A stretch of DNA of 32,000 bases from contig JAPZAR010000007.1 in assembly GCA_027460535.1 (NCBI GenBank), positions 60,001-92,000 on the forward strand. Direction: 5' to 3'. Under the pieces are notes generated by a model. The model was given only the letters and a program-made list of their open reading frames with translations, was not told where the DNA came from and ran no database searches. Position 1 is the first letter of the stretch. Every line of letters begins with the position of its first letter. The position numbers and the translations under genes are program-made. This document shows, piece by piece, positions 385 to 29,947 of the stretch. This DNA is from Candidatus Methanoperedens sp. (GTDB taxonomy: Archaea; Halobacteriota; Methanosarcinia; Methanosarcinales; Methanoperedenaceae).

Positions 385-498
385 GCGGCTGTGGTCCAGC
401 GGCTATGACAGGGGCTTCCCAACAGCCTTTTGCAGGCAAAAGCTTGATCAAAAGGAGGGAAATAGCCTCTAACCCGGGTTCGAATCCCGGCAGCCGCA
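385..498 (+). tRNA. tRNA-Gly (anticodon CCC) with an intron of about 42 nt at canonical position 37/38
   Basis: Manual cloverleaf. Perfect 7-bp acceptor GCGGCTG (385-391)/CAGCCGC (491-497) with discriminator A498. D arm 394-409 with a GG-containing loop. Anticodon stem GGGGC (411-415)/GCCTC (465-469). Loop TTCCCA..A gives anticodon CCC (418-420). T arm CCGGG-TTCGAAT-CCCGG (474-490). The insert at about 422-463 interrupts the anticodon loop. T417-C420 pair with G457-A460, next to the 3-nt bulge AAT (461-463), and C426-T431 pair with A450-G455. This is bulge-helix-bulge-like. CCA is not encoded. Confidence 0.85.
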
Positions 499-9125: not shown

Positions 9126-12100
9126 TTCATTTCCTTAAATTTAATCTTAAATTTGGTCCCTTTGATTCGATTCAGGTTTATCTCGCCATGAAGCTGATTT
9201 TCTGCCAGCATTGTAACAAGGTGCAAACCCAGCGATTTTGTTCTTTTAAAATCCACATCTTCAGGAATACCTATGCCATTATCAGCTACTACCAGTTCAA
9301 TTGCCTTTTTATAAGGTGAACGGAGAGATATCTTAATTTCACCTTTCCTGCCTTCTGGAAATGCATATTTCAAAGAGTTGGTAACGAGTTCGTTGATAAT
9401 CAGCCCGCAAGGAATCGCGGAATCGATACCCAATGAAGTTTTCTTAACATCTATATTTAGTGCTATGTTTCCTTTATTGGCTCCATAGGACTGAAACAGA
9501 TCTTTTACCATATCCCCTACGTACTCCTTGAAATCAATTCGCGCCAGGTTTTTGGATTGATAAAGTTTCTCGTGGACAAGAGACATTGACTTGATCCTGC
9601 TCTGGCTTTCCTTAAACATCTCACGGTACTCTTCCTCCTTTATATATCTGGACTGAAGCCTCAGCAGGCTTGTGATAATCTGCATATTATTTTTCACCCG
9701 GTGGTAGACTTCCCTGAGGAGCACTTCTTTTTCTCTGAGGGATTTTTCTATTTGCTCTTCTGCTTTTTTGCGTTCTGTGATATCATGAGCAATTCCAGTC
9801 GTACCTATGACCTCACCCTCATCGTTATAAATCGGGGTTTTGATCGTCTCCACCCACGTCTTTTTGCCTTCAATATTTGTTAAAGGCTCTTCCAGCTGTT
9901 TTTGTTTTCCTGATTCCATGACGTCTCTATCATCATCCCTGTATTTTTCTGCCAAATCCTTCGGCCATAAATCAAGATCAGTTTTGCCGACCAACTCTTC
10001 AGGACTCACTCCGCACGAGGCCGCGAAAGCTTCATTCGCTGCTATATATCTGCTCTCCTTATCTTTCAACCAGGCCATATCAGGTATGTTATTGAGAATC
10101 GCTTTTTGCTGGCGATCCCTCTTCCGCAGTTCCTCCTCTGCCCTTTTTCGCTGGGTGATGTCCCTGCCAAAACTCACCGATCCTACAACATTTCCTTTTG
10201 AATAAATTGGAGCTGTATTTACTGAAAGAATTAGTATACTGCCATCTATCTTTTTAATAGATACCTCATACTGCTGAGGTTGACCACTCATTGTTTTGTG
10301 GAATACTTCAATAGCGTTGGGCAAATCATCTTCAATGATAAGTGGAATGAAAGACTTAGCTTTCCAATCCTCCAATCTATGCCCGCTCATCTCTTCAGAG
10401 CGTTTGTTAAAGAACTGGAAATTGCCTTCTGGATCCAGAATCCAGATCATATCGTTGGAATATTCTATTATATTACGGTATTGCTCCTCACGTTCTCGCA
10501 ACGCCTCTTCGATCAGCATGCGCTCTGTAATATCACGTATAATATCTCTTGAACCTATGATTTTATCTCCCTCTTTAATAGCGGATGAGCTTACTTCGAC
10601 GTCAATAAGTCGCCCATCTTTTGTGCGGGCTTTCCCGACAAACTTTTCATACGATCCTTCTTTAATTAATTTATTGAATTCAATTTCAGATATGGGGATT
10701 TGTTCCGCCGGGATAATGTCAAATACAGTCATATTCAGCATTTCATCCCTGGTGTAACCCAACATCTCCTCTGTCTTTTTATTGACATCCTTATACTTCA
10801 GATCAGAATCTATTATGCATATCACATCATTTGCATTCTCGAACAGATCCCTGTATTTTTCCTCTGAATGCTTCAGTCTGGCCTCGGACTGTTTCCATTC
10901 TGTGATGTCCTGGACTGTTCCAAACATTTTTATGGGTTTACCTGAATCATCAAAAAATACTTCACCCTTTGCGCGCACAATACGCTCTATGCCGTCGGAC
11001 CGTATTATGCGCATATCAATGTCGTAAGATTTTTTCATATTTAATGCATCATCAATGGATTTTTTGACAAATTCCCGGTCATCAGGATGAACCGTATCCA
11101 GGAATTTTTCGACTGATGGACTAAATTCCATCTGGGAGAATCCAAAAATTCGATAGTTTTCAGGAGACCAATATAATTCATTTGTTTGCAGGTTCCAATC
11201 CCAATTCCCTATACTCGCTACTCTCTGGGTCTCTGAAAGGCGGTCTTCGCTCCGCTTAAGTAATACTTCCACATGCCTGCGTTCAGTGATGTCCTCAAAA
11301 GTTGTACATACCTTGTTGGGTTTGTCTTCTCCAGGTATGAATTGCGGTATAGAATGAACATTGATCCACCTGGATTCTTCTTTTTCAGGATCAAAGACGC
11401 CCATGACCACGTTCTTGACTTCTTTTCCGGTCTTCAGGGCAATCATGGCATGGTGAGTTTCTCCCGTGAAATCCGAGCCGTCTTCATGGATCGCCTTCCA
11501 CCGAGGATCCATTGGTGTTCTGCCCTGCATCTGATTGAGCGTTAGACCTAACATCCTTTGAGCAGCGGGATTTGCAGAGGTTATCTCTCCATCAGCATTT
11601 TGGCAGACGACCCCCTGCACCATTGTATCAAAAAGTGTTCGATATTTTTCTTCCGATTCTTTAAGTTCTTCGCCCACTTTCTTGAACATCAGTGCATTCA
11701 CAAAAATTTTGCTTACCATTTTGAGCAATCGAATGTCATCTTCCAGCCAGGTTTTCTCTCTCCTTATCGAATCAAATCTTAGAAATCCAATTGAAGAGTT
11801 GCCATAGACCATAGGAACGATTATGAGGGATTTAATCCCTTGAATTTGAAAACTTTTTTTTTCAGCACGTGCCTTAGCCGGCAGTTCGATCAGACTCGGA
11901 ACATGAATTGTCTCAAATTTCTTTATCTTCTTAATAGACCATGGAAAATCATCTGTTAATAATCCCTTGAGGTTCTGCATTTGCCGTCCTATGCCTTTTG
12001 CACACCACTCATGAGTATTATCCATTTTTTTCCCGTTATCGTAAAATTGGAATACACAACTTCGATCAACCTCTGCAAAATTTCCTATTATTTTCAGGCT

Positions 12101-14038: not shown

Positions 14039-14630
14039 GGAAAAATTTACATATTTCATATATTTTTTGTAAAACTAGTGCCTTTGTTTTTAGTTGTTAC
14101 CATGAATCAAGACGTTCTTACGATGCAAATAATGCCCAATGTCTGCAGTCACCGATCGCCCTTCTAAGAACGGGGCATCCGGAGAATGTTCATGGATTTG
14201 GGATTTCAATATGTTTACTTGAACTCTGTTTTAATTCAAGCGCAAATATGCAAGTTCATGAAGATTGTAGGACTATAAAGGTTATGGTTCTAGCAACCTA
14301 TGAGAGCATGAGGCAGTGGGTAATGACCTTTTCCATTCTTCCATTTTTTGTTTTGTCTATTGCCAATAGGAAGGGGCACAATTTTCAACTTGAAATCAAC
14401 TCAGAAATTTCTGTTATTTTTTAACGATAGACCGCTTTGATAAAGAGAAACTGCCTCTACAATGTGTTTTTTCTGAAAACGTCTTCTTAGAAATCCATCA
14501 TCTGGAGAAAATTTTGAAGATATTTAAATATATCCCTTTAAATTGACAATATCTGGGAATATGAGGTTTTGCGGAAGTTTATTTTAGGATTTCAAGCCGT
14601 AATGTCAGGTTTGCCTGAGGCTCAGATGTG

Positions 14631-15368
14631 TTACTTTTTCGCTAATTCCTTAACAAGTTTGTAGGCATCATAAATATTCCATATCCAAACTAAGAGCAAT
14701 AATAAAAATAGAATGGCTGGCTCATCAGAATTCGGGTCTGTCACAACGCCATATACGAACACGTAAACCAAAAAAATATTCAATACAAAAATCACTATCC
14801 CTCTTCCCCCTCTGCCGCAATATATTTGACCAATACCCGGAATCAGGAAACTTAGAAAAGCGGCAAGAGTACCACTTTTTTTCTGCACTTCCTTTTGATA
14901 CTTGACCTCTTCATCCTCCTCGGCTTTGAGTCCAACCTCCTGCAAAAGCTCCTGCTCTGTTACATGATTCTTTAGACTCTCAGCTTCAGTTCTATATTGT
15001 TCACATAACTCCTTGTATCGAGCTTCAGTTATCTCGCCCTGCGCAAGCCTTTCATCCAATTTATCAAGAAGAGCATTGATTTTACCGAGCCTATCTTTAT
15101 GAAATTTAATATCATCTGAGTTTTCCAATTCTTCAGAATTGCTATTCGCCTCCTGAATCATTATATTATATTTCATCATCCCACCAAACTTTACATGATA
15201 TTTTTTCTTGCCCACGGAAACCATTTCTATATGATCCCTTCCAAATGGTCGTATTAAAAACTTGGATAGTAGCTCTTCACCGTCCAATTTTATTTTTGCA
15301 ATATTTGTCAATTGAGAATAATCGACTTCAAGTGTATGCATTCCTATTTTTTTTTCAACTTTTGGCAT
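14631..15368 (-). CDS. Envelope-cluster protein A: cytoplasmic N-domain, SHOCT-like helix, C-terminal TM2-like two-helix membrane anchor
   Basis: 'LAQGEITEARYKELCEQY' matches the SHOCT pattern (L..G.IT..EY). The C-terminus 'FLIPGIGQIYCGRGGRGIVIF...LLVWIWNIYDAYKL' matches the GxGQxYxG...W..DA pattern of TM2-like small membrane domains. No signal peptide. Confidence 0.65.
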   Translation of the reverse strand: MPKVEKKIGMHTLEVDYSQLTNIAKIKLDGEELLSKFLIRPFGRDHIEMVSVGKKKYHVKFGGMMKYNIMIQEANSNSEELENSDDIKFHKDRLGKINALLDKLDERLAQGEITEARYKELCEQYRTEAESLKNHVTEQELLQEVGLKAEEDEEVKYQKEVQKKSGTLAAFLSFLIPGIGQIYCGRGGRGIVIFVLNIFLVYVFVYGVVTDPNSDEPAILFLLLLLVWIWNIYDAYKLVKELAKK

Positions 15369-15411
15369 TTTTTAACTTGATATCTTCCCGGTAATTCCTT
15401 TTACCATCGGT

Positions 15412-16728
15412 TTAAAGCCCAACCTCTTTCATAAGCTCTTTTTCTGTTATCATATTCTTCAGTTTCTCAGCCTCGTTTCCGTATTGCTCAGATAATTCTG
15501 TGTACCTGGCTTCTGTTATTTCACCTTGAGCAAGCTTTTCATCCAGTTTTTCAAGAAGTGCATTGATTTTATTGAGCTTTTCCTTTTGCTTTTTTAATTC
15601 GTCAATAGTCCCTTGGGGTTTTTCGGGAATAGCAGGATGCGGGACTGGCATGGGTGCAGGAGTTGGTATGAAGGCAGATGTTGTGGATTTCTTGCAGTGT
15701 GGACATTGGGTTAATGTTTCTAATTTTTCTTTTCCACAATATTTACATAATTCAAGATTTGCTTTTGGTCTTGCTATAAGATATATTAACAGACCAACTA
15801 AAAATAAGAAGAATGCTGCAATTCCCCACAGGATTCCGCTTTTTCCCCGCTTATTGGCATCTCTGACGATCCAGATTATAATATATATCCAGATAATAAA
15901 TAATATTAAACTGAAACTGAACGCCATAATGATTGGATCAGTTGAACTTTCTTGTACTGGTGTGAATGCTGGTCTGCCCTTTGCCTCTACGATAATCTTA
16001 AGCACCGTGACGCCTGTAACAGGTTTACAGGTTTCTCCGGTTTGGTATCCACAGCCCCATGTCCAGATAAGATCATAATAACCAGGTTCTTGATTTATTG
16101 GAGCCCTTATCGTATAGTATTTTTGAGGGTTCTCTCCCGGGCCAATTTCACCGAAATCTATGCGTCTTGGTGTGACCCATGATGCTGCATTACCCGAAGC
16201 GTCAGCCCAGGCATACAACCCATGTTCATCACTCCTGGCTGAAAAAGATAAATAATCATTTAATTCATCTCCCTGCGCCACTGTAAGAGATTTATACTCA
16301 CTAGGGGATGTTGTTGGTGCGGACTCCACTTCTACAGTGATTTGAAGCACTGTATCACTTATGGACGTGCAGGTCGTTCCATCCGTATATTTGCAGCTAT
16401 ATTTCCAGATCAACTCGTAATAGCCGGGTTTTTGACTCCTGGGAACACTTATCGTATACTCCCGTTCAATTCTTTCTCCAGGATCGATTGGACCGAAATC
16501 TATGCGTCTTGGTGTGGCCCATGATGCTGCATTACCCGAAGCGTCAGCCGCGGCAAATAAGCGCTTATATGCCCCTGTAAAACTGGTAGTCTGGGTTAGT
16601 TCTTCTCCCGGTGTTAAAGTAAGAGATACGTAATTATGCTCAATAGCTGAAGCTGTGTTAGTTAGGAAAATAAAAAAAATAACCAGAATAACGTATTGTA
16701 TTCTACTCGTAATATTTTCCTTTTTCAT
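15412..16728 (-). CDS. Envelope-cluster protein B: signal peptide, 2 tandem Cys-pair beta-sandwich-like repeats, PLDc_N-like 2-TM hairpin, zinc ribbon, SHOCT
   Basis: N-terminal 'VILVIFFIFLTNTASA' signal. Two repeats of about 114 aa, each with 'DASGNAASW.TPRRIDFG' and a Cys pair. 'IIWIVRDANKRGKSGILWGIAAFFLFLVGLLIYLIARP' resembles the PLDc_N membrane hairpin. 'CKYCGKEKLETLTQCPHCKK' is a CxxC..CxxC ribbon. The C-terminal 'LAQGEITEARYTELSEQY' is SHOCT-like. Confidence 0.7.
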   Translation of the reverse strand: MKKENITSRIQYVILVIFFIFLTNTASAIEHNYVSLTLTPGEELTQTTSFTGAYKRLFAAADASGNAASWATPRRIDFGPIDPGERIEREYTISVPRSQKPGYYELIWKYSCKYTDGTTCTSISDTVLQITVEVESAPTTSPSEYKSLTVAQGDELNDYLSFSARSDEHGLYAWADASGNAASWVTPRRIDFGEIGPGENPQKYYTIRAPINQEPGYYDLIWTWGCGYQTGETCKPVTGVTVLKIIVEAKGRPAFTPVQESSTDPIIMAFSFSLILFIIWIYIIIWIVRDANKRGKSGILWGIAAFFLFLVGLLIYLIARPKANLELCKYCGKEKLETLTQCPHCKKSTTSAFIPTPAPMPVPHPAIPEKPQGTIDELKKQKEKLNKINALLEKLDEKLAQGEITEARYTELSEQYGNEAEKLKNMITEKELMKEVGL

Positions 16729-18235
16729 GGAGAAATGAACGAATTTTTTTCAGTTTCGCTGAATCGCTTTCAAGATTCATGACTTTGCTTTTCAATTCGG
16801 AAATCTTTTTCATATACTTGTTTTTCAAATCATTATAAGTCTGGTCTGAAATCTCTTTATTTACAAGCCTGCTTCCGAGATTGCCAAGGAGATTCTCGTC
16901 TTTCTTTATCGCTCCCTGCATCTGCAACGCATCGTTTTCAGGCTTTGCGATTTCAGCATCCAGCATTGAAATTGCGGTATTCAACCCAAAACTCAGGTAG
17001 TTCCTGGTATCGATATCGAGATTCTCAGGCGGCAAAAGACTATGCTGTTTTCTTTTTTCAGCTTCGAACGCTGATTCTTTTTCTATCTTTGGATTAATTT
17101 TTACCTGTTCTTCCTTATACCCTTCCTCAATATGTGGTGGCAGCGAATCATCAACCTCTGACGCACCAACCTCTACTGCTGTTGGGGTTTTAGCTTTCCC
17201 TGATATATTTTTAAATGTTTTATATACCTTATTAAAAATTACATATGCCATAAAAATCATCGCAAATATGGCTATAAGCCCCAAAATTATAGATGAACCA
17301 TCGGATGTTCCTCCATCGTTTGGGGTAATTGTTGATGTGATTTCCCCGGCAGACCTTACTGTTATGGGTTCCTTCAAAATTTCTTCTTTTTTTGTCTTTA
17401 TGTCGTCCCCAAAATAATATACAACCCATCCTTCCACAACAAAATCGCCTATTTCGTTAGGCTTTAATCTCACTTCAATATCTCTGGTTGCGCCGGGTTC
17501 AAGCTTGTATGTCGAAGTATATTGCCCTGCTGCACCCTGAGTGAATTCTGTTGAAGCAACAGACATGCCGGAAGGGGGTTTTATAATTACCTGAACATTC
17601 ATAACAGGTTTTGTAATAAGATTGACCACAGACAATCTTAACAGAACGTCCTCCCCGACTACCACATTTATTTTCTCCCTATGAAGCGAAACGCTTGCGG
17701 ATAGTTCTTTGACAGTTTCTATGGGTGTTGGAGTAGGAGCTGTACCGGTAGCGGGTTTTATGAGTGTAAACGAATTTGTAATTTTGTCCAGGTCATCTGA
17801 AAAAAATGGATAGTCACTTGTCAGTGAACCCCCTGTTATTACAAAATAATTATTGCCTGATAAAATGAGTACCTGCCTTTCCTTATATTCTTTCTGTTGA
17901 TACTCTTCATAAAACATCAATTCTTTACCGGTCACACCATTAATTGCTACATAATTTTCACTAAAGGGGTAAACACCCAAACTGTTGAGATATCTTATTC
18001 TATCACCTACTATTTCGTCAAAACTCATCCCCTCGGAAGGCACAACAACAACTTTTACCCACGCGCGCCCGGTCTGGCTGCTAAAAGTCTGGTCAGAACC
18101 GTCAGGTTCTTCGATATAATTCCAGCCTGTTGGGTATACTACCTTAAAATCTCCTCCGATATTTGTAAACGTATAAGCTGAAGCATTATTAATTAAAAGT
18201 ACAATAAGTAAAAAAAATAAAATTGTTTTTTTCAT
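16703..18235 (-). CDS. Envelope-cluster protein C: signal peptide, PsbP/Mog1-like domain, beta-sandwich surface domain, TM, cytoplasmic tail with SHOCT-like helix
   Basis: Signal 'ILFFLLIVLLINNASA'. 'FKVVYPTGWNYIEEPDG...' resembles PsbP/DUF1795-type folds. After a TPTPTP linker, 'NVVVGEDVLLRLSVVNLITKPVMNVQVIIKPPSGMSV...AAGQYTSTYKLEPGATRDIEVRL' follows the same pattern as the domain shared by proteins D and E. TM segment 'IILGLIAIFAMIFMAYVIF'. The tail 'LVNKEISDQTYNDLKNKY' is SHOCT-like. The start overlaps the stop of D (ATGA). Confidence 0.65.
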   Translation of the reverse strand: MKKTILFFLLIVLLINNASAYTFTNIGGDFKVVYPTGWNYIEEPDGSDQTFSSQTGRAWVKVVVVPSEGMSFDEIVGDRIRYLNSLGVYPFSENYVAINGVTGKELMFYEEYQQKEYKERQVLILSGNNYFVITGGSLTSDYPFFSDDLDKITNSFTLIKPATGTAPTPTPIETVKELSASVSLHREKINVVVGEDVLLRLSVVNLITKPVMNVQVIIKPPSGMSVASTEFTQGAAGQYTSTYKLEPGATRDIEVRLKPNEIGDFVVEGWVVYYFGDDIKTKKEEILKEPITVRSAGEITSTITPNDGGTSDGSSIILGLIAIFAMIFMAYVIFNKVYKTFKNISGKAKTPTAVEVGASEVDDSLPPHIEEGYKEEQVKINPKIEKESAFEAEKRKQHSLLPPENLDIDTRNYLSFGLNTAISMLDAEIAKPENDALQMQGAIKKDENLLGNLGSRLVNKEISDQTYNDLKNKYMKKISELKSKVMNLESDSAKLKKIRSFLHEKGKYYE

Positions 18236-19821
18236 TTACTTAATTTCCTTGAAAGCAGACCTGCAATCATGAATATACTGATTATGGCCAGTACAACACC
18301 GAATCCAGGTATTTGTATTTTTGGTGTGGATGTAACTGTTGTTGGGGGGAACCCTGGTTCCTCTGAAGGCTCTTTTACATTTATGGAGTATGTAAGACTT
18401 ATGGGCTGATAATTGTCTTTATTATCGCCCGGATAATACAAGCCGCTGAACTGAAGAGTATGTGAACCGATCCTTGCCGATTTATCTGCTTTTATTGTAA
18501 CTGTTATCGTCCTTGCATTACCCGGCGGAACATTGAATGTACCATATACAGTTCCCGCACCTGCTGCCTGGGAGAAACCTTGACCGGATACGTGGAAGCC
18601 ACTCGGTACACTTATACTAGCGTCCACATTCAACACTACGTCGTTTAAAGATGGATTATTCATAAATAATTCCACGATTCCATCCTGGTCGGCTTCTATC
18701 ACATCGGTTACAGGTCTCAGCGTAACAGACGGACCCACGCGGAATTTTGCCTGAACTGTTGGTTTAACCGTAGTAGCTTGAACTGTAGATGGGACTGTAG
18801 TGGATTCAACTGTTGGTTTAACCGTAGTAGCTTGAACGGTAGGTATAGTGGCTTGAATCGTGGGTTGGACGGTAGTAGGAGTATAAACCTCTAATGTACC
18901 TAAAACTGTACTTCCGCTACTTCCACCTGCAACATATAGCTCGCCATTGATTACTACAGCTGCAGTGGAAGACCGTGGCGCCGACATTTGAGCCTTACTT
19001 GTCCATGTGTCCGTAGCCTGGTCATAGACGTCCAGTACGGCTGTGGTTGCGCCAGAGCTATCCGCGCCACCTGCAACGTAAAATTTCCCTCCGATTACCC
19101 CCGAAGCCGCATAAGCGTGCACATTCGGTGATGGAGCAAGACTAGTCCAAATATCTGTTACCGGGTCATAAACATGCAAAAAGTTTCTAAAGCCGCTGTA
19201 GCCATTGCACGGTGTTATGACATAGAATTTCCCGTTAATTACCCCGCTAGCTCCGCAGGCACTGAGCGTTGGCATGTTTGCTTTACTGCTCCAACTGTTC
19301 GTTGATGGGTTATAGACAAAAAGGTTGTTATTGGGAAGTCCTGGGGAAACGGTCCATCCACCCGGGATATAAAGCTGTCCGTTGATCACTCCTGCACCAT
19401 CTCCCTGATACCGACCTCCAGGCATGGGAGCAAGTGTTGTCCACGTGTCCGTTGCCGGGTTATAAGCCTGTAGCGAGGGATCCTCGCGCGTTCCACTGGT
19501 GCCCCCTATGACGTAAAGGATTCCATTAATCACTTCGGCTGCCGACTCGGATAGAGCCGTGGGCATCGGAGCCTTTATTGTCCATGCGTCTGTTGCCGGG
19601 TCGTACACCTGCAAGATATTAACAGCGGTACCGGAAACATCACGCCCCCCCGCAACGTATAATTTACCATCGATAGCAGCTGCTGCAACACCACCTAAGG
19701 GAACAGGCATAGGGGCTTTGGTAGTCCAGGTGTCGCCCAGGGCAAGAGCCTGATTGCCAGCAACCAACAATAAAAGTATACCGTATAGTACAATCTTAAA
19801 TATTTTACATGTGCGCTTCAT
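18232..19821 (-). CDS. Envelope-cluster protein D: secreted six-bladed Kelch-repeat protein with PGF-pre-PGF-like domain and PGF-CTERM anchor signal
   Basis: Six repeats of the type 'DTWT.KAPMP......(I/V)NG.LYV.GG'. A Thr/Val/Gln-rich linker. A domain of about 125 aa starting 'FRVGPSVTLRPVTDVIE...'. The C-terminal 'IQIPGFGVVLAIISIFMIAGLLSRK' is PGF plus TM plus a basic tail, i.e. an archaeosortase-type PGF-CTERM signal. I place the start at ATG 19821 (MKRTCKIF...) rather than the TTG at 19842 in the ORF track. Confidence 0.8.
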   Translation of the reverse strand: MKRTCKIFKIVLYGILLLLVAGNQALALGDTWTTKAPMPVPLGGVAAAAIDGKLYVAGGRDVSGTAVNILQVYDPATDAWTIKAPMPTALSESAAEVINGILYVIGGTSGTREDPSLQAYNPATDTWTTLAPMPGGRYQGDGAGVINGQLYIPGGWTVSPGLPNNNLFVYNPSTNSWSSKANMPTLSACGASGVINGKFYVITPCNGYSGFRNFLHVYDPVTDIWTSLAPSPNVHAYAASGVIGGKFYVAGGADSSGATTAVLDVYDQATDTWTSKAQMSAPRSSTAAVVINGELYVAGGSSGSTVLGTLEVYTPTTVQPTIQATIPTVQATTVKPTVESTTVPSTVQATTVKPTVQAKFRVGPSVTLRPVTDVIEADQDGIVELFMNNPSLNDVVLNVDASISVPSGFHVSGQGFSQAAGAGTVYGTFNVPPGNARTITVTIKADKSARIGSHTLQFSGLYYPGDNKDNYQPISLTYSINVKEPSEEPGFPPTTVTSTPKIQIPGFGVVLAIISIFMIAGLLSRKLSK

Positions 19822-19916
19822 GATACTCTTCTTTCCGCCCAAATCGGATATCGGTAGATAAATCGTTCAGCTGGAAAAAATATATTTCAGCTGAACTTGA
19901 ATCGTTTTCGATCTAT

Positions 19917-20630
19917 CTATTTTTTCCTTGAAAGTATTCGTGCAATTGCAAATACACCAAAGATAGCCAGTACAGCACCAAATCCAGGTAATTGTACTTT
20001 GGGTGTCTCTGCCCCTGTTGGAACCGCTTTGGGATTTGTAGGTTCGGCACTCTCTGGATTCTTTGACGCTGCCTTGACGGTTACAGAGTATGTAAGACTC
20101 AAAGGCTGATAAGCGTCTTTATTGTCGCCAGGATAATACAACCCTGTAAACTGAATAGTATGCGAGCCTATCCTTGCTGATTTATCTGCTTTTATAACAA
20201 CTGCTATTGTCCTTGCCGTGCCAGGTGGAACACTGAACGTACCTGATACCACTCCTGCACCTGCCGCCTCTCCGAAACTTTGACCGTAAACATGTATACC
20301 GGCGGGTACACTGATGCGTGCATCAACGTTTAGCGTCACATCGTTCAAAGACGGGTTGTTCATAAACAATTCCACAATTCCATCCTGGTCTGTTTCTATC
20401 ACATCGGTTACAGGTCTTAGCGTAACGGACGGACCTACGCGGAATTTCCCTTGAGTTGTTGTGGCTGTGGGCGCAGCTGTAGTGACTACAACAGTCGGCA
20501 CAGCGGTTGTAGCTACCACCGTAGGCGCTGTTGTCGTTTGAGCAGGCGTTGTTTCATTTTGTGATAGCGCAGGAGTTGCCAAGATCACAAAAAGTAACAA
20601 ATTTACAAATAAAAGTTTTAAAGTTTTCAC
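19917..20630 (-). CDS. Envelope-cluster protein E: secreted PGF-pre-PGF-like domain protein with PGF-CTERM anchor signal
   Basis: GTG start preceded by GAGGTG. Signal peptide 'LLFVNLLLFVILATPALS'. Thr-rich linker. A 125-aa domain that is 104/125 identical (manual alignment) to that of protein D. The C-terminal 'VQLPGFGAVLAIFGVFAIARILSRKK' is a PGF-CTERM signal. Confidence 0.8.
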   Translation of the reverse strand: MKTLKLLFVNLLLFVILATPALSQNETTPAQTTTAPTVVATTAVPTVVVTTAAPTATTTQGKFRVGPSVTLRPVTDVIETDQDGIVELFMNNPSLNDVTLNVDARISVPAGIHVYGQSFGEAAGAGVVSGTFSVPPGTARTIAVVIKADKSARIGSHTIQFTGLYYPGDNKDAYQPLSLTYSVTVKAASKNPESAEPTNPKAVPTGAETPKVQLPGFGAVLAIFGVFAIARILSRKK

Positions 20631-20794
20631 AAAACACCTCTATGTATGATTATTATAATTATTATATATACCTTTTCACTCTTCAATATTGTCTAATTAT
20701 AGGAATATAAAATAAAATTCTCGATATTTTTCAACCATAAATAATTGAGATGTAGTAAGCATTATATATTGTCATGATTATTATCAGACTAATA

Positions 20795-21628
20795 ATGAAA
20801 AATAAAACCTTACTATTATTTGTGGTTTTACTTCTTGTAATAACAGCAGGGTGTGTGGGGTCTAATGAAACCCCAAGACCGAATAATTTAGGTGCGCCTT
20901 CAAAATCATTCGAATCGCCATTACAGGGAAAGGTAACAGGCGACACAGGAAATGCAGTTAATATCATCGACAGGAAGATTATCTCAACCGCAAGCGTTAC
21001 ACTGGAGGTAAAAAGCGTAGAAAAGGCTTCTAATGAAATAACGAAAATAGTAGAGGCAAGCCAGGGTTTTATATCAGATTCATCAACCTACGATTCGGGG
21101 GGGAGCAAAAACGGCCAGATGACTATAAGGGTTCCTCAGAAGAATTTTTACTCAACCATAGAACAAATAGAAGCATTGGGAACCGAAAAATCTAGGCAGA
21201 TTTCAGGCCAGGATGTAACAGAAGAGTGGATAGACGTGGGGGCCCGCCTAGATAACTTCAAAAAACAGGAATCAAGATTCCAGGAAATATTGAAAAATGC
21301 ATCCACGGTTAAGGATGTTCTTGAAGTCGAGCGTGAGCTTGAACGGGTGCGCGGGGAAATAGAAAGCCTTACCGGGAGGATGAACTATCTAAACCAGAGC
21401 GTTGAAATGTCCACTATTACAGTAAATGTTATGGAACCGGCGCCAATAGCAGGCGATGGATGGGGGATAACTGAAGCGCTCAGGGAGGCCGTAATTGGAT
21501 TTATCGGGAGTGTAAATGGGTTAATCGTGTTCACCGGGTACATTCTACCGATAGTGGTATTTATTGCATTGATGGTATTGCTGGCAAGGTGGGTTAAAAG
21601 GAAAGTCCTGCCGTGGCTGAAACAATAG
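20795..21628 (+). CDS. DUF4349-family lipoprotein-like membrane protein
   Basis: 'MKNKTLLLFVVLLLVITAGC' is a signal with a lipobox-like Cys. 'ASVTLEVKSVEKA...MTIRVPQKNF...DVTEEWIDVGARLDNFKKQESRFQEIL...LEVERELERVRGEIESL...STITVNV' and the C-terminal TM helices follow the DUF4349 layout. The start is chosen at the second Met; the ORF track starts at 20774. Confidence 0.7.
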   Translation: MKNKTLLLFVVLLLVITAGCVGSNETPRPNNLGAPSKSFESPLQGKVTGDTGNAVNIIDRKIISTASVTLEVKSVEKASNEITKIVEASQGFISDSSTYDSGGSKNGQMTIRVPQKNFYSTIEQIEALGTEKSRQISGQDVTEEWIDVGARLDNFKKQESRFQEILKNASTVKDVLEVERELERVRGEIESLTGRMNYLNQSVEMSTITVNVMEPAPIAGDGWGITEALREAVIGFIGSVNGLIVFTGYILPIVVFIALMVLLARWVKRKVLPWLKQ

Positions 21629-21667
21629 ATAAATAAAGTTTTCTATGCAATGCCGCGAAATTAGTCA

Positions 21668-22000
21668 TCAACCGAAGACTTGACAGAACATACTAACAAC
21701 TTTGCTGCAAGCACTACGCGAATGAGTAACCACACCTTTTATTTTCTTCGCTATATAGCTCAAAGAATACTTCGGAGGATATCTGAATAAGATATGGACA
21801 TGATCAGGATTGACTGCTATCTCGATGATCTCAATATCCAATTCTTTGCAGGTCTTGCAGATTATGCCCTGGGCGACCCTCACCTGTCAGTATCTTTCCC
21901 CGTATTTGGGGGCGAAAACCAAATGGTCACTCAGCAATGATACCGTATGCCTGTCATGGCGAAGCTCTTTCTTTTTACCATTCCATCCATAGCTGATACT
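21668..22000 (-). pseudogene. tnpA: Degraded IS200/IS605-family Y1 transposase (tnpA) remnant
   Basis: The minus-strand translation reads '...ELRHDRHTVSLLSDHLVFAPKYGERY*QVRVAQGIICKTCKELDIEIIEIAVNPDHVHILFRYPPKYSLSYIAKKIKG...'. 'HLVF.PKY' and 'PDHVHIL...P..S.S..........KG' are the conserved Y1_Tnp blocks. There is an in-frame TGA after KYGERY and no in-frame start. The C-terminal catalytic-Tyr region is replaced by unrelated sequence. I found no flanking IS hairpins or tnpB. Confidence 0.75.
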
Positions 22001-26814: not shown

Positions 26815-27122
26815 GCGAGAGAGGAAGGGCGGCTACCGGCGGCAACGCTGAGGAAAGTCCCCTCACCATCTGGACCGCGGACACATGCAAGTGTGTAGGG
26901 TGAGAATCCTGGCTCTGGAACAGAAACGATACCGCTGCGCAGAAATGCGATGAGCTCGAAAGAGCGAGGTCATGCGTATTGCGGATGGAACGGCGAATCC
27001 CCGCGGGTGCAAGCCGAAATAGGACAGAAAGGGCAGTCCAGACCTGTCCGAGTACGGCGCATAGCTGAATGCTGCACGGCATTGCCCCTTGCGCTGAACA
27101 TAAAGGGGCTTACTCTCCTCAC
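26815..27122 (+). ncRNA. rnpB: RNase P RNA, archaeal type
   Basis: The universally conserved CR-I 'GAGGAAAGTCC' is at 26850-26860. CR-V-like 'ACATAAAGGGGCTTAC' is at 27098-27113, and its GGGGCTT pairs with AAGTCCCC to form P4. 'TAGGGTGAGAA' and 'ACAGAAA' are conserved-region-like elements. GAGAG at the 5' end can pair with CTCTC at the 3' end (P1). The ends are approximate to about 5 nt. Confidence 0.88.
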
Positions 27123-29947
27123 TCAAACTTATTCTGGGAACAGAAGATTTTTGCTCTTTCGAGATTTCTTGAAATTACCCGATAAGCCTCAGGAAATTCC
27201 TCTTTTGAATATATTTTCAGCGCCTCTTCATAAGCGTCGATTGATTTCTTGCAGTTCTCAGCTTTGTTCTCTACCTCGGCAAGAGTTCCATAGGCAGTAC
27301 CGAGATTGTTCTGCGTCATTGCATAGTCCATTGGGAAACGGTCAGGTGTTCTGACTTTGAGCGCCTCTTCATAAGCGTCGATTGATTTCTTGCAGTTCTC
27401 AACTTCGTTCTCTACCTCGGCAAGAGTTCCATAGGCAGTACCGAGATTATTCTGCGTCATTGCATAGTCCATTGGGAAACGGTCAAGTGTTCTGACTTTG
27501 AGCGCCTCTTCATAAGCAGCAATTGATTTCTTGCAGTTCTCAGCTTTGTTTTCAACCTCGGCAAGAGTTTGATAGGCAGCACCGAGATTGTTCTGGGTCA
27601 TCGCATACTGCATAGGGAAGCGGTCTGATGTATAGACTTTCAGCGCCTCTTCACAAGCAGCGATTGACTTCTTGCAGCTCTCGGCTTTGTTCTCAACCTC
27701 TGCAAATATTCGATAGGCAGTGCCGAGATTGTATTGAATCATGGAATACTGCATGGGGAAGCGGTCTAGTGTGTAGTCCTTCAGCGCCTCCTCATAAGCT
27801 GCAATTGATTTCTTGCAGTTCTCAGCCGTGTTCTCTACTTCAGCGAGTATTCGATAAGCATTGCCGAGATTGTTCTGGATAGCAGCATACTGCATGGGGA
27901 AGCGGTCTAGATTATAGACCTTCAAGGCTTCCTGACAAGCTGCAATTGCTTTCTTGCAGTTCTCAGCCGTTTTCTCTACTTCAGCAAGCGTTCGATAGGC
28001 ATTGCCGAGATTGTTCTGGGTCATTGCATAACCCATAGGGGAGAGGTCTAGTGTTGTAACTTTAAGAGCCTCTTCATAAGCTGCAATTGCCTTCTTGCAG
28101 TTTTCAGCTTTGTTCTCAACCTCTGCAAGTAGTTGATAAGCATTGCCGAGATTGTTCTGGGTAGTAGCGTACTGCATAGGGAAGCGGTCAAGTGTATAGA
28201 CTTTCAGCGCCTCTTCACAAGCAGCGATTGATTTCTTGCAGTTCTCAGCTTTGTTCTCAACCTCTGCAAATATTCGATAGGCATTGCCGAGATTGTTCTG
28301 GGTCATCACAAAATCCATAGGGTAATCCTTAAAAGTATAGACTTTCAGCGCTTCTTCAAACGCTGTTATTGCTTTCTTGCAGTTCTCAGCTTTGTTCTCA
28401 ACCTCTGCAAGAGTTTGAAAGGCATTGCCGAGATTGTTCTGGATACTAGCATAGTCCATAGAGAAGCGGTCTGGTGTATAGATTTTCAGCGTATCCTCAA
28501 AAATTACTATTGATTTCTTGCAGTTCTCAGCTTTATTCTCTACCTCGGCAAGAGTTCCATAGGCAGTACCGAGATTGTTCTGGGTAGTAGCATACTGCAT
28601 GGGGAAGCGGTCAAACGTTCTGACTTTAAGCGACTCTTCGAAAGCTGCTATTGATTTCTTGCAGTTCTCAGCTTTGTTCTCAACTTCAGCAAGTGTTCCA
28701 CAGGTAATGCCTAGATTGTTCTGGGTGGTAGCATACTGTATGGGGAAGAGGTCAAGTGTATAGACTTTGAGCGCTTCTTCATAAGCAGCTATTGACACCT
28801 TCATATAATATTTTTTATTAATGTCTACTATTCCAATACCATAAGCTCTATTTCCAAGACTGAACAAAGCCTCTGCATCACCCGAAAAGAAGCCAGCGAT
28901 TTTCGTGAAAAAGCTGATTCTGTCTGCTTCAATTCCATCAGGCTCTATTACAGAGTCAAGATATGCTTCTTCTGCCCAGATGACTTCATCGTTTATAATT
29001 TTTATAAAATTCTTTTTTTCAATATTCGAAAATAGAACATCTATTCGGTATTTCTCCAAGTTTATACCGAACAAAACCTTGCCAAGATGAAGAATTCGTT
29101 TTATAGAAAATTTCTCTTTTTCTTGATAAATCCCTGCTTTGTAAAGTGACCTTATGCTCTTTAGAACTGCTTTCTCTTCTGGACTGCTTTCTCCGAACCT
29201 TGCTATCATTATATCGAGAGGCATTACAAGCGAACCTATTTTACCATCAAATTCTAATGGTTTCCACTCGACCCCTATTTTCGCTGCAATTTCTTTTCCT
29301 TTTTCATCTGGAATTTCTTCCGGAAAGCTTATACTGTTCTCTTTCTTAAATAAAGAGTTGAGCCACTCCATCTTTTGCAATTTTTCAAACTCAATACCTG
29401 AACGGCATGAAGCGATTATAACAGCTTTATTTTTAAGAAACTCTTCAACCAGATACCTAAAATTTTGTTTTTCAATGAATTTATCAATATCATCCAGAAC
29501 AACTATGGTTTTTCTCCAGAAAGTAAGTTTGAGTGGTACTTCAAATTTTTCTAAATCAATATCCTGAATTCTTGGAATTATAACATTGGAAACAGGATTC
29601 ATGGTCTTAAGGGCTTCATAAATCGCTCTCGTTTTTCCAGAAAGCGGCGCACCGACAACCAAAACATGATCTCCGTTATCAATTACTTTTTTGAGCGACC
29701 GGTATTCATCTAATTCATAATATGCAAGCATGGGTCGCCTGAAAAGATCTTCTGGTTTAATGGAACTGGATTTTTTCCCATGAACTACATAGATATTATT
29801 CAAACGTTTGTATTCATTGATAGTAAAACTTACAAGATATGCATAGGCAGAAATTACAGCAATTAGAATCGCTACAGAAGCTTCCACATGGTTGCGAGAA
29901 AATTCTAAGATTGAATAGATAATATTACTTACCACATTTCGCTCCAT
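27119..29947 (-). CDS. Membrane-anchored P-loop NTPase (AAA+/STAND-like) with eleven 47-aa TPR-like repeats
   Basis: N-terminal TM 'ASVAILIAVISAYAYLVSFTI'. Walker A 'GAPLSGKT' (aa 99-106, nt about 29630-29653). Walker B 'IVVLDDID' (aa 148-155). A helical middle region of about 200 aa follows. Then 11 tandem units of consensus 'FPMQYAMTQNNLGNAY..LAEVENKAENCKKSIAAYEEALKVYTLDR', where NLGNAY/..Y.EAL are TPR signature positions. Confidence 0.8.
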   Translation of the reverse strand: MERNVVSNIIYSILEFSRNHVEASVAILIAVISAYAYLVSFTINEYKRLNNIYVVHGKKSSSIKPEDLFRRPMLAYYELDEYRSLKKVIDNGDHVLVVGAPLSGKTRAIYEALKTMNPVSNVIIPRIQDIDLEKFEVPLKLTFWRKTIVVLDDIDKFIEKQNFRYLVEEFLKNKAVIIASCRSGIEFEKLQKMEWLNSLFKKENSISFPEEIPDEKGKEIAAKIGVEWKPLEFDGKIGSLVMPLDIMIARFGESSPEEKAVLKSIRSLYKAGIYQEKEKFSIKRILHLGKVLFGINLEKYRIDVLFSNIEKKNFIKIINDEVIWAEEAYLDSVIEPDGIEADRISFFTKIAGFFSGDAEALFSLGNRAYGIGIVDINKKYYMKVSIAAYEEALKVYTLDLFPIQYATTQNNLGITCGTLAEVENKAENCKKSIAAFEESLKVRTFDRFPMQYATTQNNLGTAYGTLAEVENKAENCKKSIVIFEDTLKIYTPDRFSMDYASIQNNLGNAFQTLAEVENKAENCKKAITAFEEALKVYTFKDYPMDFVMTQNNLGNAYRIFAEVENKAENCKKSIAACEEALKVYTLDRFPMQYATTQNNLGNAYQLLAEVENKAENCKKAIAAYEEALKVTTLDLSPMGYAMTQNNLGNAYRTLAEVEKTAENCKKAIAACQEALKVYNLDRFPMQYAAIQNNLGNAYRILAEVENTAENCKKSIAAYEEALKDYTLDRFPMQYSMIQYNLGTAYRIFAEVENKAESCKKSIAACEEALKVYTSDRFPMQYAMTQNNLGAAYQTLAEVENKAENCKKSIAAYEEALKVRTLDRFPMDYAMTQNNLGTAYGTLAEVENEVENCKKSIDAYEEALKVRTPDRFPMDYAMTQNNLGTAYGTLAEVENKAENCKKSIDAYEEALKIYSKEEFPEAYRVISRNLERAKIFCSQNKFE
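27180..28800 (-). repeat. 141-bp tandem coding repeats (about 11.5 copies) inside the NTPase-TPR gene
   Basis: The marker GCGCCTCTTC recurs at 27220, 27361 and 27502 (period 141). Units 27220-27360 and 27361-27501 differ at 4 of 141 positions by manual alignment. More N-terminal units are more diverged. Confidence 0.9.

Follow-up and report, generated by a model that had tools for sequence, protein, structure and literature searches.

Archaeal surface proteins of the PGF-CTERM/archaeosortase A (ArtA) type, such as the Haloferax volcanii S-layer glycoprotein, combine a signal peptide and a Thr/Pro-rich linker with a C-terminal PGF motif, a hydrophobic helix, and a basic tail. Proteins of the ASH/PapD/RbmA-type fold are non-enzymatic and typically mediate protein-protein or matrix binding. 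Candidatus Methanoperedens (anaerobic methanotrophic archaea of group 2d, ANME-2d) oxidizes methane in nitrate- and metal-dependent reactions, and the cell surface of these organisms is important for extracellular electron transfer and aggregation; we know of no genetic system for them. SHOCT domains have been noted together with zinc ribbons and TM2 (Eberhardt et al. 2013, PMC3581485), an intracellular location and a role in assembling membrane-associated complexes are predicted for SHOCT-like domains (Ravi et al. 2024, PMC11237479), and cohesin-dockerin pairs are reported to be abundant in ANME genomes (PMC9012536). Here we analyze a cluster of five minus-strand genes (E, D, C, B, and A, in order of transcription) within a 32,000-nucleotide (nt) stretch of Methanoperedens DNA, referred to as the window (contig JAPZAR010000007.1 of assembly GCA_027460535.1, positions 60,001 to 92,000 of the forward strand; window coordinates count from its first letter). 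The conserved cassette consists of the four genes E-C-B-A, to which the Kelch gene D is accessory, and within the databases searched it appears to occur only in Methanoperedens-type archaea. Its modules are of known kinds (ArtA substrates, SHOCT-like elements, the PsbP fold, and immunoglobulin-like (Ig-like) domains); the four-gene combination appears to be new and is confined to one archaeal family. Literature searches on Methanoperedens with PGF-CTERM or Kelch, and on PLDc_N/SHOCT/TM2 combinations, returned no description of the cluster, in keeping with an earlier annotation made from the letters alone (the sequence-only reading), which knew of no described system of this composition.

The genes were called from the window DNA, and the minus-strand set was also checked against a public assembly with identical DNA, which predicts the same five products of 237, 529, 510, 438, and 245 amino acids (aa). 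Protein C is 100% identical to protein O8C66_03370 of a metagenome-assembled genome (MAG). The cassette is laid out as follows.

19917-20630, minus strand: gene E, 237 aa, GTG start
18232-19821, minus strand: gene D, 529 aa
16703-18235, minus strand: gene C, 510 aa
15412-16728, minus strand: gene B, 438 aa
14631-15368, minus strand: gene A, 245 aa
14517..20751, minus strand: block that moves together (promoter, E, D, C, B, A, and 3′ flank), delimited by blastn against L004, the closest related locus

Both the open reading frame (ORF) list and the public assembly reproduce the genes and coordinates of the sequence-only reading, together with its ATGA overlap of D and C, 26-nt overlap of C and B, and 43-nt gap between B and A. 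Its 74-nt gap between E and D requires a TTG start at 19842; with the ATG at 19821 that it assigned to D, the gap is 95 nt. Translational coupling, which it also proposed, is specific to the window lineage, as the C-B gap is 6-115 nt in most relatives. Its statement that no product has an enzyme-like motif agrees with Pfam and NCBIfam profile searches of the cassette proteins, which gave no enzyme match; with PADLOC models included, no enzyme, defense, or regulator domain was matched, and the cassette appears to encode neither an enzyme nor a recognizable regulator. A defense-system reading was ruled out, PADLOC's lone match being a 20-bit coiled-coil hit of the B hairpin to LmuB.

A C profile run against genomes at species level recovered 15 loci, every one of them in a Methanoperedens-type MAG; across these, C is 58-88% identical. 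When gene presence was counted by tblastn and ORF clustering over these loci and the window's own contig, E was found in 13 of the 16, C in 15, B in all, and A in 14. Wherever the flank suffices, the order E-C-B-A is kept on one strand with gaps ranging from overlap to about 115 nt, and it is also kept in L020, where C shows only 44% identity and its PsbP head is duplicated. The flanking genes meanwhile fall into at least five distinct housekeeping contexts, including threonyl-tRNA synthetase (ThrRS), H+-PPase, and radical SAM genes, so that gene order in relatives is co-conserved across changing surroundings. The five-gene system of the sequence-only reading thus stands as a co-oriented, tightly spaced, conserved unit, with the correction that four genes are conserved and D is missing from all of its relatives examined (the 15 scan loci and L020).

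Comparison of the window with L004 by blastn shows that the A-B-C block (91.7% identical DNA) and the block of E with its promoter are colinear. A DUF4349 gene of 0.9 kb (window 20744-21639; L004 8510-9414; 93% identical DNA) is found 5′ of E in the window but 3′ of A in L004, and the swap in order has sharp junctions at about 14517 and 20744-20751. Adjacent to the cassette only in these two loci, and on opposite sides, the DUF4349 gene was ruled out as a sixth member; the PAS kinase, response regulator, GTPase, and 128-aa membrane protein of the window were likewise ruled out as partners, none being conserved beside the cassette. An IS200-type Y1 transposase fragment of 71 aa (21668-21883, minus strand; PF01797, E-value 3e-13) adjoins the DUF4349 gene and is possibly a trace of a rearrangement that reshuffled this neighborhood. 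On the other side, the roughly 590 nt 3′ of A (14039-14630) contain no ORF of at least 60 aa before the 128-aa membrane-protein gene, and positions 14410-14553 are conserved in L004, where they lie beyond the DUF4349 gene.

Two noncoding elements accompany E.

20661..20677, minus strand: B-recognition element (BRE)/TATA-like element GAAAAGGTATATATAAT, roughly 30 nt 5′ of the Shine-Dalgarno sequence
20635-20640, minus strand: Shine-Dalgarno GAGGTG of E, before its GTG start
19866..19895, minus strand: inverted repeat TTCAGCTG-N14 (with T6)-CAGCTGAA, directly after the E stop codon

The motif [AG]GAAA[AG]GTATAT[AG]TAA is kept upstream of E in 11 related loci with differing upstream genes, and it recurs in each of the flanking contexts. 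The BRE/TATA-like element is the putative promoter of the cassette, and E-C-B-A are probably transcribed from this one conserved site. Scans for sigma-70 promoters and intrinsic terminators are uninformative because the host is an archaeon. The stem-loop after E has a window fold of -22.2 kcal/mol (z = -4.2); stem-loops of other sequence occupy the same position in L006, L007, L013, L017, and L020 (z -3.5 to -7.2), and the element is weak or missing in the L008-L016 group. Possible functions are those of an intercistronic terminator, an attenuator, or an RNA-stability hairpin, and as a terminator or attenuator it could set a high ratio of E to C, B, and A.

E and D are built on the same C-terminal plan.

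aa 1-24 of E, minus strand: signal peptide, by inspection
aa 25-60 of E, minus strand: Thr/Pro/Ala-rich linker
20073-20450, minus strand (aa 61-186 of E): E-type Ig-like sandwich, 126 aa
19920-19988, minus strand (aa 215-237 of E): PGF-CTERM, PF18204
N-terminus of D, minus strand: signal peptide, by inspection
18883-19722, minus strand (about aa 34-313 of D): six Kelch repeats, Pfam
aa 314-358 of D, minus strand: Thr/Val/Gln/Pro-rich linker
18373-18747, minus strand (aa 359-483 of D): E-type sandwich
18235-18309, minus strand (aa 505-529 of D): PGF-CTERM, PF18204

The two proteins are 73% identical over 177 aa (E-value 2e-86), a span that covers the 125/126-aa domain, the linker, and the PGF-CTERM signal, and the proposal that they share this domain and signal is borne out. 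Both pass the PF18204 cut-off of 18.8 bits (E 21.3, D 21.9) and score slightly under the TIGR04126 cut-off of 24.5 (E 18.8, D 24.0). The motifs LPGFGAVLAIFGVFAIARILSRKK and IPGFGVVLAIISIFMIAGLLSRKLSK, read straight from the sequence, consist of PGF, a hydrophobic helix, and a basic tail, and the Sec signal peptides, recognized by inspection alone, have a basic n-region, a hydrophobic core, and cleavage-type sites ALS-Q and ALA-L. No artA gene was found within the 32-kb window; archaeosortase A (IPR014522) is reported to be encoded in ANME-2d genomes (PMC5244752). The label "PGF-pre-PGF" for the shared domain did not hold, as TIGR04213 gave no match to E, D, or C even at an E-value of ≤1. The domain is an Ig-like sandwich without annotation, in a family of several hundred proteins, and profile searches found no Pfam family of its own for it. 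At 85-90% identity among orthologs, the sandwich of E is the best conserved part of the cassette. Sequence searches of the PDB with E and with A returned nothing significant. Unlike the ArtA-processed S-layer proteins, E is a 237-aa single-domain protein and no lattice protein, with NCBIfam S-layer models far under threshold, and an operon that also encodes three SHOCT-like membrane proteins is no described context for an ArtA substrate; its processing is predicted.

The six-bladed Kelch propeller proposed for D is supported by a Kelch_1 match above threshold with six matched stretches (E-value 3.3e-56). A NanM/YjhT mutarotase reading was ruled out (PRK14131 61.6 vs 416; TIGR03547 54.6 vs 256), and the Pfam NANM match covers only a short stretch overlapped by generic Kelch models. 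None of the 16 related loci (the 15 scan loci and L020) has a Kelch part between E and C, and D is absent even from L004; a metagenome scan matched either the Kelch half or the E-like half, never both in one protein, and the nearest Kelch matches elsewhere reach 42% identity at most, in architectures unrelated to D. Synteny and metagenome scan together rule out D as a conserved core member. The E-type domain of D is 72-74% identical to every E ortholog, the adjacent E included, which rules out a recent tandem copy of E; since D is equidistant from all E proteins and E orthologs are 85-90% alike, the D pedestal is a paralog. D appears to be a lineage-specific Kelch fusion on a paralogous E-type pedestal with PGF-CTERM, inserted between E and C. 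The idea of Kelch binding modules seated on membrane partners would therefore apply to one lineage only and, because relatives lack the Kelch part, the core cassette works without it. GC content is 43-49% over window positions 18001-20000 (D and E) and 36-42% over A-C; the Gly/Ala/Pro/Thr-rich composition of the Kelch part and linker, or another origin of D, may account for the difference.

Protein C joins two extracellular-type domains to a conserved tail.

N-terminus of C, minus strand: signal peptide
17771-18178, minus strand (aa 20-155): PsbP-like head, Foldseek
17351-17698, minus strand (aa 180-295): C-type Ig-like sandwich, Foldseek MG/Ig-like
17228-17296, minus strand (aa 314-336): one transmembrane (TM) helix
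16706-17077, minus strand (aa 387-510): conserved tail with a hairpin at aa 408-509 and the turn LGxRLVNKEIS-x3-Y

The AlphaFold model of C has a mean pLDDT of 69, with domains at 75-90. Foldseek matches the head to CyanoP (2xb3, E-value 1.3e-8, TM-score 0.73), and also to plant PsbP structures and DcrB (6e8a). The PsbP/Mog1-like domain of the sequence-only reading is thereby upheld at the level of the fold, and some C orthologs are named "PsbP-related protein" by NCBI; a functional PsbP is not implied by the modeled similarity. Compared with PsbP/CyanoP/DcrB/Mog1-fold proteins, the head has 10-16% sequence identity, the host is non-photosynthetic, and the fusion to a sandwich, TM helix, and SHOCT-like tail is an architecture found only in Methanoperedens; an exhaustive profile search places full C architectures in 2-3 clusters at 50% identity. 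As had been anticipated, C holds a divergent copy of the E/D domain followed by a TM helix: its sandwich is 30% identical to that of D/E over about 120 aa by blastp (E-value 1e-7), and hhalign against E gives a probability of 96.4% (E-value 1.3e-9); the sandwiches of E and C are homologous. This copy also matches NPCBM_assoc and DUF11 weakly in Pfam. A K-rich segment follows the TM helix.

The architecture of B is as follows.

N-terminus of B, minus strand: signal peptide
16333-16635, minus strand (aa 32-132): Ig-like repeat 1
15985-16296, minus strand (aa 145-248): Ig-like repeat 2
15772-15936, minus strand (aa 265-319): PLDc_N-like pair of hydrophobic helices
15694-15747, minus strand (aa 328-345): zinc ribbon CKYC-x11-CPHC
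between zinc ribbon and hairpin, minus strand: Pro-rich linker
15415-15606, minus strand (aa 375-438): SHOCT-like helical hairpin

The two Ig-like repeats, overlooked by the sequence-only reading, are 52% identical to each other (E-value 8e-38). The AlphaFold model of B (mean pLDDT 80) displays two sandwiches, two antiparallel hydrophobic helices, a small zinc knuckle, and a hairpin, in agreement with the ribbon and helix pair that had been proposed. Foldseek relates the repeats to the tandem domains of Vibrio cholerae RbmA (E-value about 4e-9), to ASH-type ciliary domains (E-values down to 5e-11), and to PapD-like domains. The likeness is one of fold, at 8-14% identity, with no functional link implied, and B differs from these proteins in being membrane-anchored and in carrying a zinc ribbon and hairpin. 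All 72 detectable homologs of B are Methanoperedens-type, and NCBI's name for one ortholog, P0150, is "PLD nuclease N-terminal domain-containing protein".

Protein A, which has no signal peptide, begins with a variable domain.

15117-15368, minus strand (aa 1-84): lineage-variable N-terminal domain
14928-15116, minus strand (aa 85-147): SHOCT-like hairpin
14661-14873, minus strand (aa 166-236): three hydrophobic helices with a PGxGQxYCG motif (TM2/DUF6677-like)

The helices and motif agree with the TM2-like anchor proposed earlier. A CxxC-x12-CxxC zinc ribbon lies between hairpin and anchor in 11 of 14 A orthologs, which are without the N-terminal domain; the ribbon is lost from A in the window and in L004. 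Some loci have an extra gene 3′ of A, again starting with a B/A-type hairpin (58-70% identical) and continuing into a distinct, unannotated C-terminal membrane part.

L008 8916-9650: extra hairpin gene after A
L011 11629-12360: extra hairpin gene after A
L012 6035-6769: extra hairpin gene after A
L020 5277-5933: extra hairpin gene after A

In L016, a 108-aa ORF without detectable family (11001-11431) follows B in place of A.

The hairpins link C, B, and A. The segments of B and A are 70% identical over 63 aa (E-value 3e-24), slightly longer than the 55-aa common segment first described. The C tail matches them weakly when compared directly (hhalign E-value 3e-4 to 8.5e-4, probability 24-40%), and the related proteins P0071 and P0181 bridge it to the B/A hairpins at an E-value of about 1e-5. 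The turn motif of A and B, LDERLAQGEITEARYKEL, has LGSRLVNKEISDQTYNDL as its counterpart in C, matching the SHOCT pattern in which a short turn bearing a conserved G-x-I-[ST] and an aromatic residue connects two amphipathic helices, and AlphaFold predicts helix-turn-helix structures in B (H373-401/H406-435) and C (H408-458/H464-509) with pLDDT about 90. These elements resemble SHOCT proteins (PF09851) in their bi-helical form with an L..L..G-x-I-[ST]-x-x-x-Y turn and, in A and B, in the company of zinc ribbons and TM2-type or two-TM anchors. They differ in being far longer (about 60-100 aa), in scoring under the Pfam cut-off, and in occurring in three proteins of one operon, where they accompany Ig-like or PsbP-like ectodomains outside the cell. 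The A and B hairpins are 72% identical within a genome and 67.6% between genomes, and share clade-specific substitutions, a pattern that would fit co-evolution or gene conversion.

The same modules circulate in a wider pool of envelope proteins. The E family has 546 detectable members, mostly PGF-CTERM proteins of 230-260 aa, and its domain carries other heads, such as Laminin_G_3 (P0279/P0287) and DUF2341 (L016). The latter is a 670-aa protein (L016 581-2593) with DUF2341 (E-value 6e-30), an E-type sandwich, and PGF-CTERM, 5 kb upstream of the cassette, and is an analog of D with a different head. The C-type sandwich occurs in more than 1000 representative clusters of many architectures, usually C-terminal just before an anchor, and looks like a general membrane-proximal pedestal. 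The sequence-only reading had named membership in large, scattered paralog families as a point that would tell against it; this applies to the E and C-type sandwich families, from which the syntenic orthologs are distinct. Further combinations are listed here.

P0313: single anchored chain in which E-type and C-type sandwiches alternate (E, C, E, C)
P0181: PsbP head followed by a single B-type Ig repeat, a single TM helix, and a hairpin of the B/A type
P0175/P0178: one TM helix bearing three Ig repeats of the B type
P0312: tailless C protein
P0071: fusion of C modules with B modules

The alternation of E-type and C-type sandwiches in P0313 fits a partnership of E and C, and the single TM helix of P0181 is consistent with a cytoplasmic hairpin. 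In proteins P0072-P0078 (about 450 aa), a signal peptide and a C-type sandwich precede the only TM helix, after which come another C-type sandwich, a helical region, and a zinc ribbon at the C-terminus; the Ig-like sandwich thus seems to lie on both sides of the membrane in them, and this layout means that the sidedness of these modules is not to be assumed.

Elsewhere the window is ordinary chromosome, with genes for homoserine dehydrogenase, a Trm5/Tyw2 methyltransferase, aspartate-semialdehyde dehydrogenase, an aminotransferase, HisH, an AIR-synthase-like protein, and a PAS histidine kinase with a response regulator. An archaeal RNase P RNA (26817-27124, plus strand; RF00373, 210 bits) confirms the chromosomal housekeeping context. 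A 114-nt tRNA (385-498, plus strand; Rfam 46 bits), presumably intron-bearing, was detected as well; ARAGORN reported no tRNA in the window.

We propose that the products of E, C, B, and A form one complex or membrane-spanning scaffold, to which we assign a probability of about 0.5. E would be a small secreted Ig-like pedestal held at the membrane by its PGF-CTERM (archaeosortase A) lipid anchor, and C a type-I membrane protein with the PsbP-like head outside, the E-like sandwich near the membrane, and the hairpin tail in the cytoplasm. Outside the cell, E-type and C-type sandwiches would pair side by side at the membrane surface, a pairing that the alternating domains of P0313 and the strong constraint on the E domain both fit. 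The C, B, and A hairpins would pack together on the inner face or bind the inner leaflet, joining the three membrane proteins, and the PsbP-like head and tandem Ig repeats may present binding surfaces under or within the S-layer. D would be a recent plug-in of this lineage only, its Kelch domain on an E-type pedestal able to use the docking site of E. The composition suggests a structural, tethering, or adhesive role and not a catalytic one; we have much less confidence in any specific role (tethering, adhesion, or sensing) than in the scaffold itself.

Several observations weigh against such a scaffold. Topology is its sharpest problem: given the signal peptide, ectodomains, and two antiparallel helices of B, simple parity would place the zinc ribbon and hairpin of B outside the cell, opposite those of A and C, unless the second helix is re-entrant. 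Both flanks of that helix are positive (mean K+R 3.1 and 3.2, vs 0.5 before the first helix), and the hairpin of A, 70% identical to that of B, is expected to be cytoplasmic because A is without a signal peptide. The cytoplasmic SHOCT-like helix assigned earlier to C, B, and A thus stands as a hairpin in structure and motif and fits the sidedness of C and A, with B's parity opposite. The accompanying idea that SHOCT tails oligomerize in the cytoplasm is an inference: the sole experimental test of SHOCT self-association was negative (PMC3581485) and parity would leave B's hairpin outside. Profile scores fall short for SHOCT (PF09851, threshold 27 bits; B 15.3, A 18.2, C no match; orthologs 14-17.6 bits, with alignment limited to model positions 3-18 of 28), for PLDc_N in B (PF13396, 17.9 vs 23.3 bits), for the DUF6677/TM2-like anchor of A (22.8 vs 24.3), and for the C head (PsbP 20.6 vs 23.5; PsbP_2 20.7 vs 27). 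L016 has no A. The relatives all fall within a single family-level clade, so inheritance alone may account for some of the synteny, and because the modules are promiscuous, shared domains alone are no proof of partnership. P0071, a potential Rosetta stone, was down-weighted: its locus is decayed and has an A-like fragment at either side, and its topology does not agree with that of C.

In a somewhat unlikely alternative, the products are independent surface or membrane proteins that form no complex, each arising from the extensive reshuffling of a limited stock of envelope modules in Methanoperedens, their adjacency reflecting common descent in a narrow clade and perhaps shared regulation. Modules do occur in other architectures and loci (P0072-78, P0103, P0108, P0175, P0181, P0182, P0312, and the L016 DUF2341 protein), D was inserted with the other genes undisturbed, and L016 retains the cassette without A. 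Against independence, the cassette is kept whole although its flanks differ in at least five ways, it moved as a block relative to DUF4349 and took its promoter along, full-length C and B occur only in this arrangement save for one decayed locus, the E domain is unusually constrained (85-90% where C is 58-88%), and the A/B hairpins co-vary by clade. A quite unlikely reading would make the cassette an envelope sensor analogous to the phage-shock protein (PSP)/Lia systems, with the C and B ectodomains sensing the state of the surface or S-layer and the hairpins and zinc ribbons relaying it to a cytoplasmic partner encoded elsewhere. Predicted membrane-stress signaling neighborhoods repeatedly contain SHOCT-like domains and zinc ribbons (PMC11237479), C has a sensor-like layout of outer PsbP-like head, one TM helix, and conserved cytoplasmic tail, and the C tail and A/B hairpins are the most conserved cytoplasmic elements. 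Yet no PspA, PspC, Toastrack, LiaF, kinase, helix-turn-helix (HTH), or other output domain is present in the cassette or its conserved neighbors (PspA/Snf7, PspC, Toastrack, LiaF-TM, and a regulator were not found among the cassette, conserved neighbors, and window genes), the PAS kinase and response regulator of the window are not conserved beside it, and the zinc ribbons are short membrane-proximal knuckles without an adjoining DNA-binding domain.

The five-gene apparatus of the sequence-only reading, with the Kelch domain of D as the key ligand-binding or adhesive head, is highly improbable: D is wedged between E and C, overlaps C by ATGA, and bears the same pedestal and anchor as E, but its Kelch part is missing from every related locus, L004 included, and the matches elsewhere are distant and differently built. 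Within the proposed E-C-B-A scaffold, a more specific arrangement, which we regard as unlikely, would be an undescribed docking platform in which PGF-CTERM pedestals with interchangeable heads (Kelch, DUF2341, LamG) plug into the homologous sandwich of C, a PsbP-like receptor itself bound to two zinc-ribbon membrane proteins through a three-way hairpin bundle. The analogy to cohesin-dockerin display is one of logic only, with varied heads on a common E-type pedestal and anchor and C as the hypothetical partner; no cohesin or dockerin domains are present in the cassette. If true, such a platform would assign a definite structural task to SHOCT-like domains and endow Methanoperedens with a modular surface display of its own.

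The cassette is neither mechanistically surprising nor linked to a phenotype so far, and the docking hypothesis is testable. With three membrane proteins of one operon bearing the SHOCT-like hairpin, it offers a natural test case for the role of that element, and likewise for how PGF-CTERM-anchored proteins are organized at the archaeal membrane. Conserved, clade-specific, and non-enzymatic, it is a candidate for a lineage-defining surface structure of Methanoperedens.

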